Assembly: GCF_988243305.1 (NCBI RefSeq)
Contig: NZ_OZ547136.1
DNA: 64,000 nt
Reading direction: 5' to 3' (one strand)
Shown: one piece after another, positions 4,889 to 54,501 of the stretch
How positions within the stretch are numbered: position 1 is the first letter of the stretch
Layout: every line of letters starts with the position of its first letter
Translations under genes and position numbers: made by a program
Notes under the pieces: model-generated
The model's input: only the letters and a program-made list of their open reading frames with translations
Database searches by the model: none
What the model was told of the DNA's origin: nothing

Positions 4889-5257
4889 TTAGCCTGGACG
4901 CACTCTTTTTTGATCGCGTTTAGCCAGACCATCAACCACCAGATTCCACGAATCGTTGATCAGATCGCGAAGTAACGCTTCGGAGATTTCCTCGCCGGGA
5001 TACACTGAAATCCAGTGCTTTTTATTCATGTGATATCCTGGCTTAATGCTCGGGTATATCTGCTGATTTAACAGGGATTTTTGTGGATCGGACTTCAAAT
5101 TGATAAAGGGAACGCCGCGCAGCTCTGACGACAACATAAAAATCTTGCCGCCAATTTTAAAAACATCGAACTCCGGCCCAAAAGGCCAGCAAAGCTCGAC
5201 AAAGGGTAACTCAAGGGCCAGGCGTTTCGCCGTTTCGTGCAGTGATTGCTTATCCAT
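4889..5257 (-). CDS. ybdF: Conserved protein YbdF
   Basis: ORF 4889..5377; start trimmed to [13 protein letters not shown] (122 aa). Confidence 0.85.
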
Positions 5258-5321
5258 AAACGTTCCTTTAGGCGAAGGAGAATAAGCAAAGTATGCCGCG
5301 AAGTTCGGCGATAATCGACGT

Positions 5322-5570
5322 TTAATCCGCCAGCGAGAACCAGCGTCGCCAGATAAAGCGCAGAACAAAATACTCAATAGCGCCCAGCACTAAAAACCAC
5401 AGACAAAACAATAAAGTGTAAAGCTGGCTAAGATCCATCAGATGGAACGTGGTCACCAGTTTTTGTGCCAGCGTCAGCCCCAATGCGGGGGCGGGAAGCA
5501 GCAGGCAAGAGAGGAAAGCCATCAGCAAAATGCCTGCTGCGGTGGTCAAGGTTTCTAAAGGGTGTTTCAT
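5322..5570 (-). CDS. ybdJ: Small membrane protein YbdJ
   Basis: 82-aa ORF with two hydrophobic segments. Confidence 0.85.
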
Positions 5571-5635
5571 AACATTGTTAAATGTAAGTTAAAACACCAT
5601 TGTCAGGGATATTCTTCTGTAAGGCAATTCCCGAC

Positions 5636-6763
<1,128 letters not shown>

Positions 6764-7045
6764 TTATGTTGGCGTTTTCTATTCAGTATAGAAGTGGGAG
6801 CGACTGGGCGAGATGCGGAAGTTCTGGAATGTTTTTTTTTGATGATGGTGACTGAAGCAAATTGGCTACATTTTGCAATATGACAAGTTATGGCAGTGCG
6901 GACTGGTGGCGAAGAATTTTGACGATTGAGGCATGCAGAAAAAACGGGTTCAGCTTCAGTTGATCAAATGAGGATTGAGAAGTCCGAAACAGGACTTACT
7001 GTATAAATAAACAGCTATTTTGCTAAGGAAGGGTAAGATAACGGC

Positions 7046-7110
7046 GGGTGCCTGAAGCTTTCCGGTTTCAGGTTTACTCTGAGGTCTGGAAAGATGAAGC
7101 CCCAGGACGA
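7046..7110 (-). ncRNA. sokE: Putative Sok antisense RNA, copy 1 (approximate coordinates)
   Basis: Inferred from hok/sok architecture: antisense to the mok translation-initiation region; candidate minus-strand -10 tagaaat at 7123..7117 and a weak -35. Confidence 0.3.
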
Positions 7111-7282
7111 TATTTCTATCAACCCTGGGGCTGCCACTCCAAACCCAAACAATTTGGATGGTAGTCCCTTCTTCGCATGGAGGCAATATAAACATGCTGA
7201 CGAAATATGCCCTTGCGGCAGTCATAGTGCTGTGTTTGACGGTGCTGGGATTTACGCTTCTGGTCGGAGACTCGCTGTGTGA
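7094..7282 (+). CDS. mokE: Mok (modulator of killing) overlapping reading frame, copy 1
   Basis: 62-aa ORF overlapping hok in another frame, as in hok/sok loci. Confidence 0.5.
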
Positions 7283-7346
7283 GTTTACGGTGAAGGAACG
7301 TAATATTGAGTTTAAGGCTGTTCTCGCTTACGAACCGAAGAAGTAG
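7194..7346 (+). CDS. hokE: Hok-family type I toxin (50 aa), copy 1
   Basis: [50 protein letters not shown]; single TM helix and conserved Hok C-terminus. Confidence 0.85.
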
Positions 7347-7418
7347 CCGTTGTGCGGGGAGTAATCCCCGCATATCCGGTTGTCAGGTCAGGGTGGTAAG
7401 GCACCTGCTTTACACTTT

Positions 7419-7446
7419 CGCCCGCGGTCAGCAATGGCTGCGGGCG
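7419..7446 (+). terminator. 3' stem-loop of hok mRNA copy 1 (terminator/fold-back region)
   Basis: cgcccgcggtcagcaatggctgcgggcg palindrome. Confidence 0.5.
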
Positions 7447-7549
7447 ATGTCGTTTTAAGGGCAATGATCAGTTTTGCCAACAGAAGTCCGAAACAGGATT
7501 CACTGTATAAATAAACAGCTATTTTGCTGAGGAAGGGTAAGATAACGGC

Positions 7550-7614
7550 GGGTGCCTGAAGCTTTCCGGTTTCAGGTTAACTCTGAGGTCTGGAAAGATG
7601 AAGCCCCAGGACGA
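7550..7614 (-). ncRNA. sokE: Putative Sok antisense RNA, copy 2 (approximate coordinates)
   Basis: Same position relative to mok/hok as copy 1. Confidence 0.3.
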
Positions 7615-7786
7615 TATTTCTATCAACCCTGGGGCTACCTACCCAAACCTGAACAATTTGGATGGTAGTCCCTTCTTCGCATGGAGGCAATATAAACATG
7701 CTGACGAAATATGCCCTTGTGGCAGTCATAGTGCTGTGTTTAACGGTGCTGGGATTTACGCTTCTGGTCGGAGACTCGCTGTGTGA
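7598..7786 (+). CDS. mokE: Mok overlapping reading frame, copy 2
   Basis: 62-aa ORF, 3 aa different from copy 1. Confidence 0.5.
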
Positions 7787-7850
7787 GTTTACGGTGAAGG
7801 AACGTAATATTGAGTTTAAGGCTGTTCTCGCTTACGAACCGAAGAAGTAG
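7698..7850 (+). CDS. hokE: Hok-family type I toxin (50 aa), copy 2
   Basis: [50 protein letters not shown]; one substitution (A8V) relative to copy 1. Confidence 0.85.
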
Positions 7851-7950
7851 CCGTTGTGCGGGGAGTAATCCCTTAAGTTAGCGCTTATGGGAGTAATCCC
7901 CGCATATCCGGTTGTCAGGTCAGGGTGGTAAGGCACCTGCTTTACACTTT

Positions 7951-7978
7951 CGCCCGCAGTCAGCATTGGCTGCGGGCG
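7951..7978 (+). terminator. 3' stem-loop of hok mRNA copy 2
   Basis: cgcccgcagtcagcattggctgcgggcg palindrome. Confidence 0.5.
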
Positions 7979-7999
7979 AATCGCTCCGGGTATTGTCAA

Positions 8000-8620
8000 T
8001 TAATCGTGTTGGCACAGCGTTATGACTATCTTTTCTTTTATCTGCCAGTGCACAGCAAACTGCTCATCCTCTAGTCGAATGATGATCTGCTGTTTATTCA
8101 AGCTAATTATCTGATAATCCAGAAATCCTGCATCAGTTTGTCTCTCCGATGCCTTAAATGCGCTCTCTTTGGCGGAAAATGCCAGTGTTAGCGCCAGAGA
8201 AAAGGTTAAACCGCATTCTGCGAGTCGCTCGTGTTCTGCTGGTGTAATAATGTTGTCTGTCAATTCTCTTGCGGTTTGTACAGAGAAAATCTCTTCGATA
8301 TCAATGCCAATCGGTTGACGAGATACCACGGCTAATGCCGTAGTCCCGCAGTGGCTAATACTGCCGTATACCTCCGCAGGCCACACAGGTTGGCGTAGCT
8401 CGCCGATAGCGGGCACATATTTATAGCCATATTCCCGCAAGGCATAAACAGCAGCGATTCGTCCAGCTAAATGCTCTGTTTTACGTTTACGTCCAGCGTG
8501 TTGCAGTTGTGCGTAGTGTGGCAGCCAGAGTAAATCCTGCTCGCGAAAACTCGCCGGATCGAACTTAACAAAATGCAGCGTATTTCCGGCAAAGGGGAGG
8601 GCGGTATGCGTAGTTTTCAT
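8000..8620 (-). CDS. entD: 4'-phosphopantetheinyl transferase for enterobactin synthase
   Basis: ORF 8000..8770; PPTase motifs PIGIDIEEI and FSAKESAFKA; start ambiguous (MKTTHT at 8620 or MVDMKTT at 8629). Confidence 0.85.
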   Translation of the reverse strand: MKTTHTALPFAGNTLHFVKFDPASFREQDLLWLPHYAQLQHAGRKRKTEHLAGRIAAVYALREYGYKYVPAIGELRQPVWPAEVYGSISHCGTTALAVVSRQPIGIDIEEIFSVQTARELTDNIITPAEHERLAECGLTFSLALTLAFSAKESAFKASERQTDAGFLDYQIISLNKQQIIIRLEDEQFAVHWQIKEKIVITLCQHD

Positions 8621-8655
8621 GTCGACCATATTAGAGACTGATGACAAACGCAAAA

Positions 8656-8755
8656 CTGCCTGATGCGCTACGCTTATCAGGCCTACGTGGTCCTGCAATA
8701 TATTGAATTGGCAAGATTTTTGTAGGCCGGATAAGGCGTTCACGCCGCATCCGGC
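8656..8755. repeat. REP/BIME element (two REP-type palindromic units) between entD and fepA
   Basis: gcctgatgcgctacgcttatcaggcctac and tgtaggccggataaggcgttcacgccgcatccggca match the enterobacterial REP consensus family. Confidence 0.75.
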
Positions 8756-8794
8756 ATGAACTACGCGCACTTTGTCAACAATCTGACGTTAGCA

Positions 8795-11035
8795 TCAGAA
8801 GTGAGTATTAATGCTCATATACCACGTACGTCCCGGCTCGTTATAGGTATATGCCCCGGCACCGGCGATATAGTTGGCTCCTGCCAGATCGCCTGTGGTC
8901 TGGGCATTACCCGCACGCCACAAACGTTTGTCGAACAGGTTGTCCACGCCGCCGGTCAGACTGACATTCTTCGTTACATCCCAGGTCGCGCTCAGGCCAA
9001 CAATGCTGTACGGGCTGATTTCTTTGGTTTCCGGTCCAACCGCTGGCTGACCTTTATAGTTGTACTTCTTCGGCTGCTGCTTGCCGTACCAGGTGAAGGT
9101 TGTTTGCATCGACAAATCTTCCCGTGCCTGCCAGCTCAGCGTTGAGTTCAACGTATACTCCGGGATGATCGACAAACGGTCGCCCGTGGTTTTGTTTTCA
9201 CTCTTCAGCATATAAGTGATGTTATTGGTCCACATCACCGTTTCGCTAACCGGTACGTTTAACGATCCTTCCAGACCTTCAACCACCGCTTTCGGTACGT
9301 TATCCCACTGATAGAGATCGGTGCCGACTGCGTTTTGCCCTACAGCCACATAGCCCGCTTCAATCTTATTGCGATAATCGTTACGGAACCAGGTGACGCC
9401 CGCCAGCCAGCCGTCGCGTTTGAACTCCAGACCAATCTCTTTGTTGATGCTGGTTTCTGCTTTCAGGTCATCATTACCTTGCAGATAGCAGCCGCCCGCG
9501 CTGGCATAGCAGCCCTGACCTTTACTGTAGAGAATGTAGTTCGGGTTAGTCTGGTACAGACTCGGCGCTTTATAAGCACGGGCAATGCCCATTTTCAGCG
9601 TGAAGTCATCGCCTAAACCTTGCGAGATGTTCAGCGCCGGACTCCAGTTATTGCCAACAATGCTGTGATGATCGAAACGCAGCCCCGGCGTTACGATGGT
9701 GCTGTCAGTCAGCTCCATATTGTTTTCGGCAAATAGCGAGAAAATTTCTGCTTTTGAATACGGGCTACGGTCGGTGGCACTCACGCCATCAATAGCACCG
9801 CCGGTATTCGTCCCAGTGAGCGCCTGGGTGTTGGAACTTAAATCCTTCATCCGCTGCTGATTCCACTCCGTACCCAGCGTCAGCGTCTGGTTAACGAGGA
9901 AATCAATCGGCAGGTTAACTTCGCTGTGCAGCATCACGTCATCGAGATCGATATCGACGAAATCCTGTGTCGCTTTTTCGTTAAATTTCCCTTCGGTACC
10001 GCCCGCCAGACCTTCCGGAATACGCGAGTTACGGGTGTGTTCGTACTGCACCCAGTTGCTGGTGGTCACGCCGTTATCCCAGCCGCCGTTCCATGTCAGC
10101 GAGTAGTTCTGGCGATACAGACGGTTGGTTTCATCGCCATATTTCGAGCGGGTATAGGAGTCAGAGTTGGTGTTCTGGGTGTCGCCCGCATACAGGTTAC
10201 CCTGGCGGCTGTAGCCCGCTTCCAGTTCGAGTGATTGCAGAGGCGCGAAGTCCCAGCGCACTACGCCATTAATATCTTTGTTAATTACCCCTTCGCGCCC
10301 GGCTGGTAACGTCGTGGCATACGTTCCGGCACGCGCGGACTGATGGCCCTGGTTGATATCCCACGCGTCAGCCTGGGTTTTGTCGAGGTTGCCATACAAG
10401 CGGAAGCTGAATTCGTCGCCCAGCGGACCGGTCAGGCTGAAGTTGGTGCGTTTAGTGGCACCTTCCTCTTTATGTTCTGGCGCATTGAAATAAGCGTCCC
10501 AGGAGCCGTGCCACTCACCGCTGCCTTTTTTGGTAATGATGTTAACCACGCCGCCCGCCGCGCCGTTGCCATAACGCGCAGCTGCCGGACCACGCAGAAC
10601 TTCAATACGTTCAATCATTTCAGGTGGCACCCAGGAAGTATCACCACGGGTATCGCGCTCGCCACGCCAGCCCTGACGCACCGAGTTACGGCTGCTTACC
10701 GGTTTGCCGTCAATCAAAATCAGCGTGTTTTCCGGACCCATGCCGCGAATATCAATCTGGCGGTTATTACCACGCTGACCACTGGTGGAGTTGCCGGTCA
10801 GGTTAACGCCTGGCATGGTACGGATGATCTCCGACACATCGCGGGCAACCGGGTTTTTGCGGATTTCATCTGCGGTGATGGTCGAAACGCCAGGTGCCTG
10901 CAAGTTCTGCTCGGCGGCGGTAACGACAATGGTATCGTCATGTGAAACAGGAGTATCGGTCGGCTCTTGTGCCTGTGCTACCCCATAAATCCCCAGATTG
11001 ACCAACAAGGCCAGGGAATGAATCTTCTTGTTCAT
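8795..11035 (-). CDS. fepA: TonB-dependent ferric enterobactin outer-membrane receptor
   Basis: ORF 8795..11092; start MNKKIHSLALL with signal peptide; TonB box DTIVVTA; C-terminal aromatic terminus ...NTHF. Confidence 0.95.
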   Translation of the reverse strand: MNKKIHSLALLVNLGIYGVAQAQEPTDTPVSHDDTIVVTAAEQNLQAPGVSTITADEIRKNPVARDVSEIIRTMPGVNLTGNSTSGQRGNNRQIDIRGMGPENTLILIDGKPVSSRNSVRQGWRGERDTRGDTSWVPPEMIERIEVLRGPAAARYGNGAAGGVVNIITKKGSGEWHGSWDAYFNAPEHKEEGATKRTNFSLTGPLGDEFSFRLYGNLDKTQADAWDINQGHQSARAGTYATTLPAGREGVINKDINGVVRWDFAPLQSLELEAGYSRQGNLYAGDTQNTNSDSYTRSKYGDETNRLYRQNYSLTWNGGWDNGVTTSNWVQYEHTRNSRIPEGLAGGTEGKFNEKATQDFVDIDLDDVMLHSEVNLPIDFLVNQTLTLGTEWNQQRMKDLSSNTQALTGTNTGGAIDGVSATDRSPYSKAEIFSLFAENNMELTDSTIVTPGLRFDHHSIVGNNWSPALNISQGLGDDFTLKMGIARAYKAPSLYQTNPNYILYSKGQGCYASAGGCYLQGNDDLKAETSINKEIGLEFKRDGWLAGVTWFRNDYRNKIEAGYVAVGQNAVGTDLYQWDNVPKAVVEGLEGSLNVPVSETVMWTNNITYMLKSENKTTGDRLSIIPEYTLNSTLSWQAREDLSMQTTFTWYGKQQPKKYNYKGQPAVGPETKEISPYSIVGLSATWDVTKNVSLTGGVDNLFDKRLWRAGNAQTTGDLAGANYIAGAGAYTYNEPGRTWYMSINTHF

Positions 11036-36858: not shown

Positions 36859-37139
36859 TAATTTGTCCTTTTCAGTCAGTGCAAAAGTCGGGTAAAAGGC
36901 ATAACCTATCACTGTCATAGGTAAGAGCTTAGATCAGGTGATTGCCCTTTGTTTATGAGGGTGTTGTAATCCATGTCGTTGTTGCATTTGTAAGGGCAAC
37001 ACCTCAGCCTGCAGGCAGGCGCTGAAGATACCAAAGGGTAGTTCAGATTACACGGTCACCTGGAAAGGGGGCCATTTTACTTTTTATCGCCGCTGGCGGT
37101 GCAAAGTTCACAAAGTTGTCTTACGAAGGTTGTAAGGTA

Positions 37140-40918: not shown

Positions 40919-41147
40919 TTTTACTCCATGTCGTCGGTACTGCGAGTGTCGCAGATAAACATACCCAAAAGAAAACCCTCACCGTCAGGCGGCGAGGGTT
41001 TAACTCACATGATGATACTGACTGTTGCTCACTCTTTGAAGTGATTTGCGTCACATTCAGGGAATTCCTCAATGTAGCGCATTATGTATAAATCTTAATC
41101 GTCATGGTTTATGGAAGACGAATTAGCGTGTTTTGTAAATCAGAGGA

Positions 41148-54069: not shown

Positions 54070-54243
54070 GACAAATGAAATTTTAGTAAACTCTTTAAAA
54101 TCAATGAGTAAAATAATTAACATCAAAAATAACGCGACTTTTATCACTTTTTAGTAAAGTTGCACTGGACAAAGCGTACCACAATTGGTGTACTGGTAAC
54201 CGACACAGCATTTGTGTCTATTTTTCATGTAAAGGTAATTTTG

Positions 54244-54453
54244 ATGTCTAAGATTAAAGGTAACGTTAAGTGGTTTAATGAGTCCAAAGGATTCGGTTTC
54301 ATTACTCCGGAAGACGGCAGCAAAGACGTGTTCGTACACTTCTCTGCAATCCAGACTAATGGTTTTAAAACTCTTGCTGAAGGTCAGCGCGTAGAGTTCG
54401 AAATCACTAACGGTGCCAAAGGCCCTTCTGCTGCAAACGTAATCGCTCTGTAA
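54244..54453 (+). CDS. cspE: Cold-shock domain protein
   Basis: 69 aa from [12 protein letters not shown]; RNP motifs KGFGFI and VFVHF. Confidence 0.9.
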
Positions 54454-54471
54454 GATACGTCAGCAAGAATT

Positions 54472-54501
54472 CAAAACCCGCTTAATCAGCGGGTTTTTTT
54501 T
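54472..54501. terminator. Bidirectional intrinsic terminator between cspE and crcB
   Basis: aaaacccgc ttaatca gcgggtttttttt. Confidence 0.7.

Follow-up and report, generated by a model that had tools for sequence, protein, structure and literature searches.

The ybdK-entD intergenic region of this E. coli chromosome was predicted to contain two copies of the hokE/sokE type I toxin-antitoxin module, which raises the questions of whether the duplication is real and peculiar to the strain, whether both copies are intact, and whether the Sok RNA of one unit can act on the hok mRNA of the other. From analysis of the window (the whole 64,000-nucleotide stretch of DNA that was examined) and comparison with other genomes, we conclude that the locus is very probably the two-unit form of a hokE/sokE array that varies in copy number, a common and old Escherichia polymorphism; its units would be complete type I modules, similar in the hok centre and diverged in their Sok leaders, and unit 2 would have lost an IS186 element.

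A tandem hokE/sokE array between ybdK and entD

The two units lie head to tail (Table 1), and a repeat search identifies them as two sets of direct repeats, 6978-7277 with 7482-7781 (96%, spacing 504) and 7357-7447 with 7889-7979 (98%, spacing 532). MAFFT alignment joins these into one continuous homology that ends abruptly on both sides, with 14 substitutions and a single 28-bp insertion in unit 2. TRF reports no repeat over 5000-10000, a result that is not evidence against the duplication, as it is probably explained by the 504-bp period exceeding the 500-bp limit of the program. In each unit hok is intact at 50 codons, mok spans 62 codons, and none of the hok-family RNA elements is missing. 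The original prediction of a diverged, head-to-tail duplication of intact modules, each with an overlapping mok and a 3' palindrome (7418-7447 and 7950-7979), is therefore upheld by the repeats, the alignment and the open reading frames, and the ORF translations confirm the A8V difference between the Hok copies; the Mok frames differ at four residues (A14T, T15Y, P18L and D49N) rather than the three that had been claimed.

Table 1. Features of the hokE/sokE array and its flanks (window coordinates)
Feature	Coordinates	Strand	Remarks
ybdK (flank)	5636-6754	-	
hokE/sokE unit 1	6978-7447	+	470 bp; repeat family and alignment
LexA (SOS) box core, unit 1	6999-7014		CTGTATAAATAAACAG; CTGT-N8-ACAG
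Predicted hok mRNA-1 5' end, tac element	7043-7053	+	GGCGGGUGCCU; pairs with 7399-7409 in MFE and centroid folds; 5' end by analogy with R1
ucb (anti-SD)/mok Shine-Dalgarno stem, unit 1	7058-7093	+	closed in full-length fold
Predicted SokE-1	7090-7150	-	61 nt; register from curated K-12 sokE (607733-607792, minus strand), 44 nt upstream of hokE
mok-1 frame	7094-7282	+	62 codons; overlaps hok start; ORF list
Substitution cluster	7133-7147		6 of 14 unit 1/unit 2 substitutions; Sok nt 4-18
Putative Sok promoter, unit 1	7158-7186	-	-10 TACCAT 7163-7158; -35 TTGCCT 7186-7181; 17-bp spacer; read by eye
hokE-1	7194-7346	+	50 aa from inner ATG; identical to K-12 HokE, WP_000956455.1
Codon 46 UAC within GCUUACGAA	7329-7331	+	candidate TadA A-to-I editing site, Tyr to Cys
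Post-stop hairpin GGGG-AGTAAT-CCCC, unit 1	7356-7369		unoccupied IS186 insertion hot spot
3' partner of Sok-target segment, and fbi, unit 1	7386-7409	+	partner 7386-7397, fbi 7399-7409; long-range pairing, MFE
Terminator-like hairpin and T-run, unit 1	7418-7457	+	only terminator-like site in scan; palindrome 7418-7447
Unique spacer between units	7448-7481		34 bp; diagnostic of tandem allele; diverged between species
hokE/sokE unit 2	7482-7979	+	498 bp; repeat family and alignment
LexA box core, unit 2	7503-7518		CTGT-N8-ACAG
Predicted SokE-2	7594-7654	-	register with unit 1 and K-12 sokE
mok-2 frame	7598-7786	+	62 codons; ORF list
hokE-2	7698-7850	+	50 aa; A8V; WP_000956465.1; commonest HokE variant in sample
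IS186 scar, unit 2	7862-7899		GGAGTAATCC 7862-7871; right inverted repeat CTTAAGTTAGCGCTTATG 7872-7889 (18 nt); second GGAGTAATCC 7890-7899
fbi, unit 2	7931-7941	+	pairs with 7547-7557 in MFE fold despite scar
3' hairpin, unit 2	7950-7979	+	without T-run; abuts convergent entD
entD (flank)	from 8000	-	

Distribution in Escherichia

Tandem repeats of ~500 bp are prone to short-read misassembly, a concern raised with the prediction itself. It is extremely improbable, though, that the array arose in assembly or is a very recent duplication confined to this strain, as the copies are distinguished by their 14 substitutions and 28-bp indel and are separated by a unique spacer, and 2389 of 5426 complete E. 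coli genomes (~44%) share the unit-to-unit junction, with a RefSeq annotation that reads "hokE (x2)". Arrays of one, two and three units exist, and the array occupies the same locus in E. whittamii, in Escherichia sp. MOD1-EC7003 and in a third lineage, labelled 'E. coli' but divergent, with no more than 91.5% identity in ybdK; the spacers have diverged between these species. The unit 1 sequences of the window and of strain Z1323HEC0462 are 100% identical. The shared junction thus establishes that the tandem arrangement is real, but not that it is a peculiarity of this strain; it is an ordinary and already annotated state and not a discovery.

Comparison with K-12 MG1655 hokE/sokE (b4415/b4835) reveals the same ybdK-entD site, LexA box, Sok position and post-stop hairpin. 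K-12 contains one hokE followed by IS186B, as stated in the original prediction, with the full 1.3-kb IS186 in the hairpin severing hok from fbi and the terminator; in the window there are two units, the first with its hairpin unoccupied and the second retaining just an 18-nt IS186 remnant and a target duplication. In K-12 a 1-nt deletion places the ATG equivalent to the mok start in the hok frame. The K-12 state is simply another allele, and the main value of these observations is as a correction: the reference arrangement of one hokE and IS186 is not the norm, and almost half of the complete E. coli genomes have two or three intact hokE modules. Escalera-Maurer et al. describe 'Hok islets' of 2-6 copies arising by local duplication and accounting for 10% of Hok genes (bioRxiv 10.1101/2025.08.07.668861); the hokE array itself and its leader haplotypes (a term not itself used as a query) are unnamed in the hokE-related literature examined.

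Hok, Mok and folding of the hok mRNAs

The predicted products of both hokE genes are members of the Hok/Gef family of small hydrophobic toxins; HokE-2 matches Pfam PF01848 (HOK_GEF) over residues 5-46 (E = 2.5e-8), and there are matches to the NCBIfam Hok models, although these fall under the curated cut-offs. MG1655 HokE was used as a control that had earlier been shown to be toxic, and editing of the Cys46 codon is stated for hokC, hokD and hokE (bioRxiv 10.1101/2025.08.07.668861). A PGAP-annotated antisense ORF of 89 aa is without a family match and is set aside as probably spurious.

Both mok frames start after a GAGG Shine-Dalgarno sequence and stop 88 nt into hok, the overlap expected of the family. 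Among 45 natural units, mok is 83, 62, 22 or 2 codons long, with the two shortest forms in 14 of them. The coupling of hok to mok translation may therefore fail for some alleles, since the frame is not conserved.

The plasmid R1 hok/sok (parB) system shares with this locus a Hok/Gef toxin, a mok overlap, a Sok with a single-stranded leader, tac/fbi closure and refolding, and the predicted folds agree with the R1 model of closure and refolding (PMC9841398). There are also differences, in that the hokE locus is chromosomal, tandem and has a LexA box, and Sok covers its mok start with the 3' part and not, as in R1, with the leader. Post-segregational killing is known for the R1 system rather than for hokE. 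By analogy with R1, each hok mRNA would be ~400-430 nt long and made untranslatable by an 11-bp stem between its 5' and 3' ends (tac/fbi). Trimming of the 3' end to the post-stop hairpin would allow the leader to refold into a tac/ucb stem, freeing the mok ribosome-binding site, and translation of mok across the hok start would then permit that of hok. The 61-nt Sok would block this by using its single-stranded 5' leader to pair with the region of the mok start.

Folding of the two hok mRNAs and Sok RNAs had been suggested with the original prediction, and it returns tac/fbi closure for hok and a leader plus hairpin for Sok. For either unit, the 11-bp stem is present in the MFE fold as well as in the centroid fold, and the full-length folds containing it have z-scores of -6.7 (unit 1) and -9.8 (unit 2) relative to shuffled sequences; the Rfam model starts on unit 1 at position 7046. 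When the 3' end of the unit 1 mRNA is cut in silico to 7372, a tac/ucb hairpin supplants the ucb/SD stem and the mok Shine-Dalgarno is opened. Long-range closure and refolding after 3' trimming are thus reproduced in the modelled RNAs.

An IS186 scar in unit 2

The original prediction held that the locus has no IS element. This is inaccurate, as the 28-bp insertion in unit 2 comprises the 18-nt IS186 right end and a 10-bp target duplication, with junctions that are identical base for base to those of K-12 IS186B, including the site, the orientation and the length of the duplication. The 18-mer has no other match in the window, where none is expected by chance. A complete IS186 (both ends and a transposase gene) is absent from the window, as is any other IS186 end, and the unit 2 feature is a scar and not an IS. 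It is a rare one, the contiguous form being present in 2 of 5426 genomes; the search returned 18 genomes at a coverage of at least 80%, but in 16 of them the match is joined from two pieces of an IS186-occupied array.

Slippage would also give a direct repeat of GGAGTAATCC, and the insertion could be envisaged as a hairpin arm duplicated locally, with chance filler. We regard this as very improbable: the filler is the outermost right end of IS186 and abuts the duplication just as in K-12, an 18-mer of this kind is expected zero times in the window, the 10-bp repeat matches the IS186B target duplication in both length and position, and hokE-type hairpins are occupied by IS186 in 1919 of the 5426 genomes. 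IS186 is present in the equivalent hairpin in K-12 (at the exact site), in unit 1 of L004 and in a hokX-like locus. The target consensus of IS186, reportedly defined by SaiSree in 2001, we take to be G4-N6-C4, and four IS186-occupied hairpins examined here agree with it.

We therefore return to IS186 as the source of the scar, and propose that unit 2 once carried the element in its GGGG-N6-CCCC post-stop hairpin and lost all but 18 nt and the target duplication, probably by nearly precise excision across the CCC(A/T)TAAG repeat. The term 'nearly precise excision' was reportedly applied to Tn10/IS10 by Foster et al. in 1981. Like the event proposed here, Tn10/IS10 excision involves deletion between short direct repeats near the inverted ends and leaves a terminal remnant with the target duplication; the hokE scar differs in that the element is IS186 (IS4 family), in the repeat used, and in that the mechanism is deduced from the product alone. 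Loss of the element would have rejoined hok to fbi and the terminator, so that this strain provides an example in which IS186 insertion appears almost cleanly reversible and the mRNA architecture restored.

Divergence of the Sok leaders

Both units exceed the gathering threshold of the Rfam sok model (RF01794), with 82.4 and 84.1 bits, and the predicted SokE-1 folds into a leader of ~11 nt and a hairpin. The putative Sok promoter matches the consensus at 8 of 12 positions, and its implied start at ~7150 coincides with the 5' end of K-12 sokE. A sigma-70 scan identifies no hok or Sok promoter with at least 9 of 12 consensus matches, so both are to be taken as weak matches recognized by eye and by analogy. 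Transcription of the predicted hok and Sok RNAs from both units is presumed.

Diversity was calculated from 37 units, frames and motifs were surveyed in 45, and 20 adjacent pairs were compared. Across 45 units, variation peaks in this part of the predicted Sok RNA. The most variable 21-nt window of the unit alignment starts at 7133 and overlaps the Sok leader, and nucleotide diversity (pi) in the leader (7130-7150) is 0.188 as compared to 0.0375 for the whole unit, about 5-fold higher (permutation p = 0.0002). All 20 adjacent pairs differ in the leader, with a per-site difference of 0.238 as against 0.022 in the centre; the corresponding random-pairing probability of 0.02 is not a true P value, the sampled arrays being phylogenetically related. 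The similarity of the units in the hok-coding centre is probably maintained by gene conversion.

This concentration of differences in the leader leads to the prediction that cross-repression is weakened. Cognate duplexes of the 21-nt leaders have energies of -42 and -41 kcal/mol, and non-cognate ones -24. Weakening would fall short of abolition because the non-cognate Sok still shares an identical 40-nt 3' part, and the Sok1 leader can also pair with hok2 through G.U pairs. It is likely that the two modules are partially and asymmetrically insulated, with each Sok predicted to be most effective against the mRNA of its own unit. Near-identical modules within one intergenic region also occur in zorO-orzO/zorP-orzP of EHEC and in ibs-sib and ldr-rdl of E. 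coli (PMC2887945, PMC3919570), and these resemble the hokE array in having few nucleotide differences in the RNA pairing region. Antitoxin discrimination is a trait of these tandem systems; for the hokE Sok copies it is predicted.

We raise tentatively the possibility that selection keeps the Sok leader and its target different among co-resident units, with discrete leader haplotypes shared across Escherichia species, and that the rest of the unit is homogenised by gene conversion. If so, each extra unit would add an independently controlled, SOS-linked dose of toxin that is not buffered by the antitoxin of its neighbour. The recognition leader of Sok, as the hypervariable part of the module and one that differed in every adjacent pair sampled, offers a concrete and testable case of antisense-specificity divergence in a natural tandem array.

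Active modules or relics

The same variation could arise by neutral drift or at a mutational hot spot if the units were decaying, functionless relics. Chromosomal hok loci have failed tests for post-segregational killing, hokA, hokB and hokC among them, which were judged inactive (Pedersen and Gerdes 1999, summarised in bioRxiv 10.1101/2025.08.07.668861), and K-12 hokE is not SOS-induced (0.47-fold with AZT; PMC11228462). The 22- and 2-codon mok frames noted above point the same way, as does the position of the leader within mok codons, where conservation of the protein sequence is not required. Nor do the leader and its 3' partner (7386-7397) covary clearly: type C leaders go with the partner variant G7392A, but the pairings cannot be told apart by duplex energy.

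Decay is nevertheless difficult to reconcile with the hok frames, which are intact in 45 of 45 units with few amino acid changes, or with retention of the LexA box in 44 and of the TadA motif GCUUACGAA in all 45. The bin 7167-7187, which holds the Sok -35 element, is invariant across 37 units, and the predicted RNAs fold far more stably than shuffled sequences. Drift or a hot spot has likewise to account for a leader diversity that exceeds, by a factor of 4-5, that of the unit's own non-coding 5' and 3' parts and not just that of coding sequence, for the persistence of leader haplotypes across species, and for leaders that differ even where the flanking 100-270 nt are identical between units. 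On balance it seems rather unlikely that the units are relics, and we favour the reading of the array as complete modules.

The LexA boxes

The sequence CTGT-N8-ACAG has only two matches in the 64-kb window, and these are the boxes of the two units. hokE is included in a list of the LexA regulon, where its box has a heterology index of 4.9 (PMC6590174, PMC11228462), and in each unit the box would overlie a weak hok promoter, making SOS control of the hokE units a candidate form of regulation. We considered TGTATAAAT (7000-7008) as an extended -10 element and rejected it, as it is the centre of the LexA box. The K-12 hokE allele used in the AZT experiment is the one interrupted by IS186.

Tandem hokE/sokE units between ybdK and entD

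The repeat search identifies two families of direct repeats, 6978-7277 with 7482-7781 (96%) and 7357-7447 with 7889-7979 (98%), which pairwise alignment unites in a single homology of 6978-7447 with 7482-7979. The homology has sharp edges at its start and at its stop, and unit 2 departs from unit 1 by 14 substitutions and one 28-bp insertion. TRF reports no tandem repeat for the array, likely because the 504-bp period exceeds its 500-bp limit. The tandem, diverged hokE/sokE units at 6961-7980 are as described in the original prediction, each with an intact hok and an overlapping mok, but the two Mok sequences differ at four residues rather than three. Both units match Rfam RF01794 above threshold, and the Hok peptide matches Pfam HOK_GEF.

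Coordinates of features in the two-unit hokE/sokE array
Feature	Coordinates	Strand	Remarks
LexA box, unit 1	6999-7014		perfect CTGT-N8-ACAG
5'-3' stem, unit 1	7043-7053 with 7399-7409		fold z-score -6.7
Predicted Sok, unit 1	7090-7150	-	register from K-12 sokE
mok, unit 1	7094-7282		62 codons, overlapping hok
hok, unit 1	7194-7346		intact, 50 codons
Inter-unit spacer	7448-7481		34 bp, without counterpart
LexA box, unit 2	7503-7518		perfect CTGT-N8-ACAG
5'-3' stem, unit 2	7547-7557 with 7931-7941		fold z-score -9.8
Predicted Sok, unit 2	7594-7654	-	register from K-12 sokE
mok, unit 2	7598-7786		62 codons, overlapping hok
hok, unit 2	7698-7850		intact, 50 codons, A8V
28-bp insertion site, unit 2	7862-7899		reads GGAGTAATCC-CTTAAGTTAGCGCTTATG-GGAGTAATCC
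Array neighbours			ybdK on one side, entD on the other

Comparison of the whole intergenic region with 5426 complete E. coli genomes shows that RefSeq already annotates two hokE genes in many records, and the unit-to-unit junction (query 7410-7530, at least 80% query coverage) is present in 2389 of these genomes (44%). Other E. coli loci show a single unit without an IS (L009-L011), a single unit followed by IS186 as in K-12 (L003, L015), two units with IS186 in the first (L004), and three units (L006). When one genome per bacterial species is scanned for exact patterns, the two-unit array turns up, again flanked by ybdK and entD, in three further lineages: E. whittamii, Escherichia sp. MOD1-EC7003 and a divergent 'E. 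coli' with a ybdK identity of just 91.5%. The 34-bp spacers of these three lineages diverge roughly as their flanking genes do, and in both E. albertii and Escherichia sp. E1V33 one hokE unit adjoins entD. This distribution makes the array a copy-number polymorphism that is both old and widespread, and neither an assembly artefact nor a strain-specific event. The tandem state is a common, already annotated allele. Locally duplicated 'islets' with 2-6 copies are reported to hold 10% of Hok genes (bioRxiv 10.1101/2025.08.07.668861), and type I systems are also known to occur as tandem repeats (PMC2887945).

The spacer has only faint similarity, around TGATCA, to the sequence upstream of unit 1 (6944-6977) and little to that downstream of unit 2 (7980-8013), whereas the units on either side are ~97% identical; the junction of the duplication thus looks far older than one would judge from unit similarity, which is consistent with concerted evolution of the units. 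In four E. coli loci (L013, L017, L018, L022) an SDR-family oxidoreductase gene, instead of entD, directly follows the two-unit array, which suggests that the hokE-entD junction has a further structural variant.

An IS186 scar in unit 2

The original prediction held that the array contains no IS, but the 28-bp insertion is an IS186 scar. It matches the K-12 IS186B junctions (left, ...GGGGAGTAATCC|CATAAGCGCTAACTTAAGGG...; right, ...CCCTTAAGTTAGCGCTTATG|GGAGTAATCCCCGC), and therefore preserves the terminal 18 nt at the right end of IS186, together with the 10-bp target duplication in both its copies, with site, orientation and duplication all identical to those of IS186B. The 18-mer has no second occurrence in the 64-kb window, where chance alone would yield no match. 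The deletion has its ends in CCC(A/T)TAAG, a sequence found at the left junction and again inside the right inverted repeat, which suggests, from the product, that IS186 was lost by slippage-type 'nearly precise excision'. The contiguous scar is found in only two complete E. coli genomes, Z1323HEC0462, whose sequence in the region has 99.9% identity with that of the window, and 2012C-4221, which has it in the third unit. The GGGG-N6-CCCC hairpin is a genuine IS186 hot spot, because IS186 occupies a hokE-type hairpin in 1919 of the 5426 genomes and, at a hokX-like locus, the equivalent hairpin as well.

At the cysH-cas3 (hokX) site of strain CFSAN061770 (L005; NZ_CP023142.1, 900-4200) the order is a hokX-like hok, IS186, the 3' end of a hokE unit, the 34-bp spacer, 391 nt from the start of the next hokE unit, and a second IS186. 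By this order a piece of hokE array between two IS186 copies is now at another hok locus; IS186-mediated recombination, or movement as a composite transposon, could account for the transfer.

Predicted Sok RNAs and hok mRNA folding

The 5' end of the curated K-12 sokE (607733-607792, minus strand) is 44 nt upstream from hokE. A putative promoter (-35 TTGCCT, 17-bp spacer, -10 TACCAT) fits the predicted Sok start but is weak (8/12 consensus positions), and a generic promoter scan with a threshold of 9/12 found none. In the folds of both predicted Sok RNAs, ~11 nt of single-stranded leader precede a hairpin, as in R1 Sok.

Full-length hok mRNAs, from GGCGGG through the 3' hairpin, are both closed by an 11-bp 5'-3' stem in predicted folds, with the mok Shine-Dalgarno region stem-bound and the Sok-target segment paired with the 3' UTR beside fbi, the 3' partner of tac. 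When the 3' end is trimmed in silico to the post-stop hairpin, the tac/ucb hairpin forms and the mok Shine-Dalgarno stem opens, matching the closed-to-open switch described for R1 hok (PMC9841398). The IS186 scar only lengthens the unit 2 post-stop hairpin, and these pairings are left undisturbed.

Divergence of the Sok leader

Six of the 14 substitutions between the units fall at 7133-7147, corresponding to nt 4-18 of the predicted Sok and to the mRNA segment that it would contact first. The 21-nt leader duplexes are predicted at -42 and -41 kcal/mol for cognate pairs and -24 for non-cognate pairs; over the first 12 nt, Sok1 keeps its pairing on hok2 through G.U pairs (-16.8), and Sok2 has true mismatches on hok1 (-12.0). 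This clustering yields a testable prediction, that insulation between the two modules is partial and asymmetric.

In an alignment of 37 units from 22 E. coli genomes, later extended by 8 units from other species, diversity (pi) in the leader (7130-7150) is 0.188 against a unit mean of 0.0375, and the 21-nt window of peak diversity starts at 7133 (permutation test for clustering, p = 0.0002). The leader variants form discrete haplotypes (A1-A4, B and C) that are independent of array position and recur in other species. Leaders differ in all 20 adjacent pairs sampled, and the per-site difference is 0.238 there, compared with 0.022 for the unit centre (7151-7377), where 0-2 differences are often seen within an array and 3-12 between genomes. 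Homogenisation everywhere but in the antisense recognition segment fits selection that keeps the Sok specificities of co-resident modules distinct; such distinct specificities are known for zor/orz and ibs/sib, and only predicted for the hokE array. Recombination, too, would remove identical repeats. Because of this, because the sampled arrays are not independent of one another, and because the 3' partner of the Sok-target segment shows no clear compensatory changes among the aligned units, we regard insulation between the two modules as likely and not as proven. The concentration of differences in the Sok leader is the sole part of these observations beyond what we found described.

Conservation of the units and other features

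The LexA boxes of units 1 and 2 are the only CTGT-N8-ACAG matches in the 64-kb window. hokE is on LexA-regulon lists (PMC6590174, PMC11228462), and the K-12 allele, interrupted by IS186, shows no induction by AZT (PMC11228462). In all units examined, codon 46 lies within a GCUUACGAA motif, a candidate site for TadA editing (bioRxiv 10.1101/2025.08.07.668861).

Among 45 natural units, the frame from the ATG equivalent to 7094 has 83, 62, 22 or 2 codons, depending on 1-nt indels at two positions, 7108 and 7144 in the coordinates of unit 1. In the window each unit carries the canonical mok of 62 codons, and the 83-codon K-12 frame is in frame with hok, giving a Mok-Hok fusion; with such indel-altered frames, canonical mok-hok coupling may not apply to all natural hokE alleles. 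The hok frame is intact in 45/45 units, and conservation is also high in the LexA box, the Sok promoter and the TadA motif, which argues against simple decay; from their sequences both window units look functional. Chromosomal hok loci failed post-segregational-killing tests (summarised in bioRxiv 10.1101/2025.08.07.668861).

An 89-aa ORF antisense to the hok leader (6956-7225, minus strand; equivalent 7577-7729) is called a 'hypothetical protein' by PGAP in many genomes, often flagged as frameshifted or with an internal stop; it has no NCBIfam match, and the gene call, which overlies sok/hok, is probably spurious.

ARAGORN predicts no tRNA genes in the window. STnc70, rnk leader and cspA-type thermoregulator matches from Rfam, all above gathering score, lie at 36992-37085, 40964-41072 and 54143-54501. 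In the stretch from the annotated start of entD to fepA, 8679-8761 matches Rfam ES036 (CssrF; 42.2 bits, above gathering score) and partially a REP-like naRNA4; the entD ORF listed here (8000-8770, 256 aa) is longer than the 621-nt RefSeq entD of near-identical genomes.
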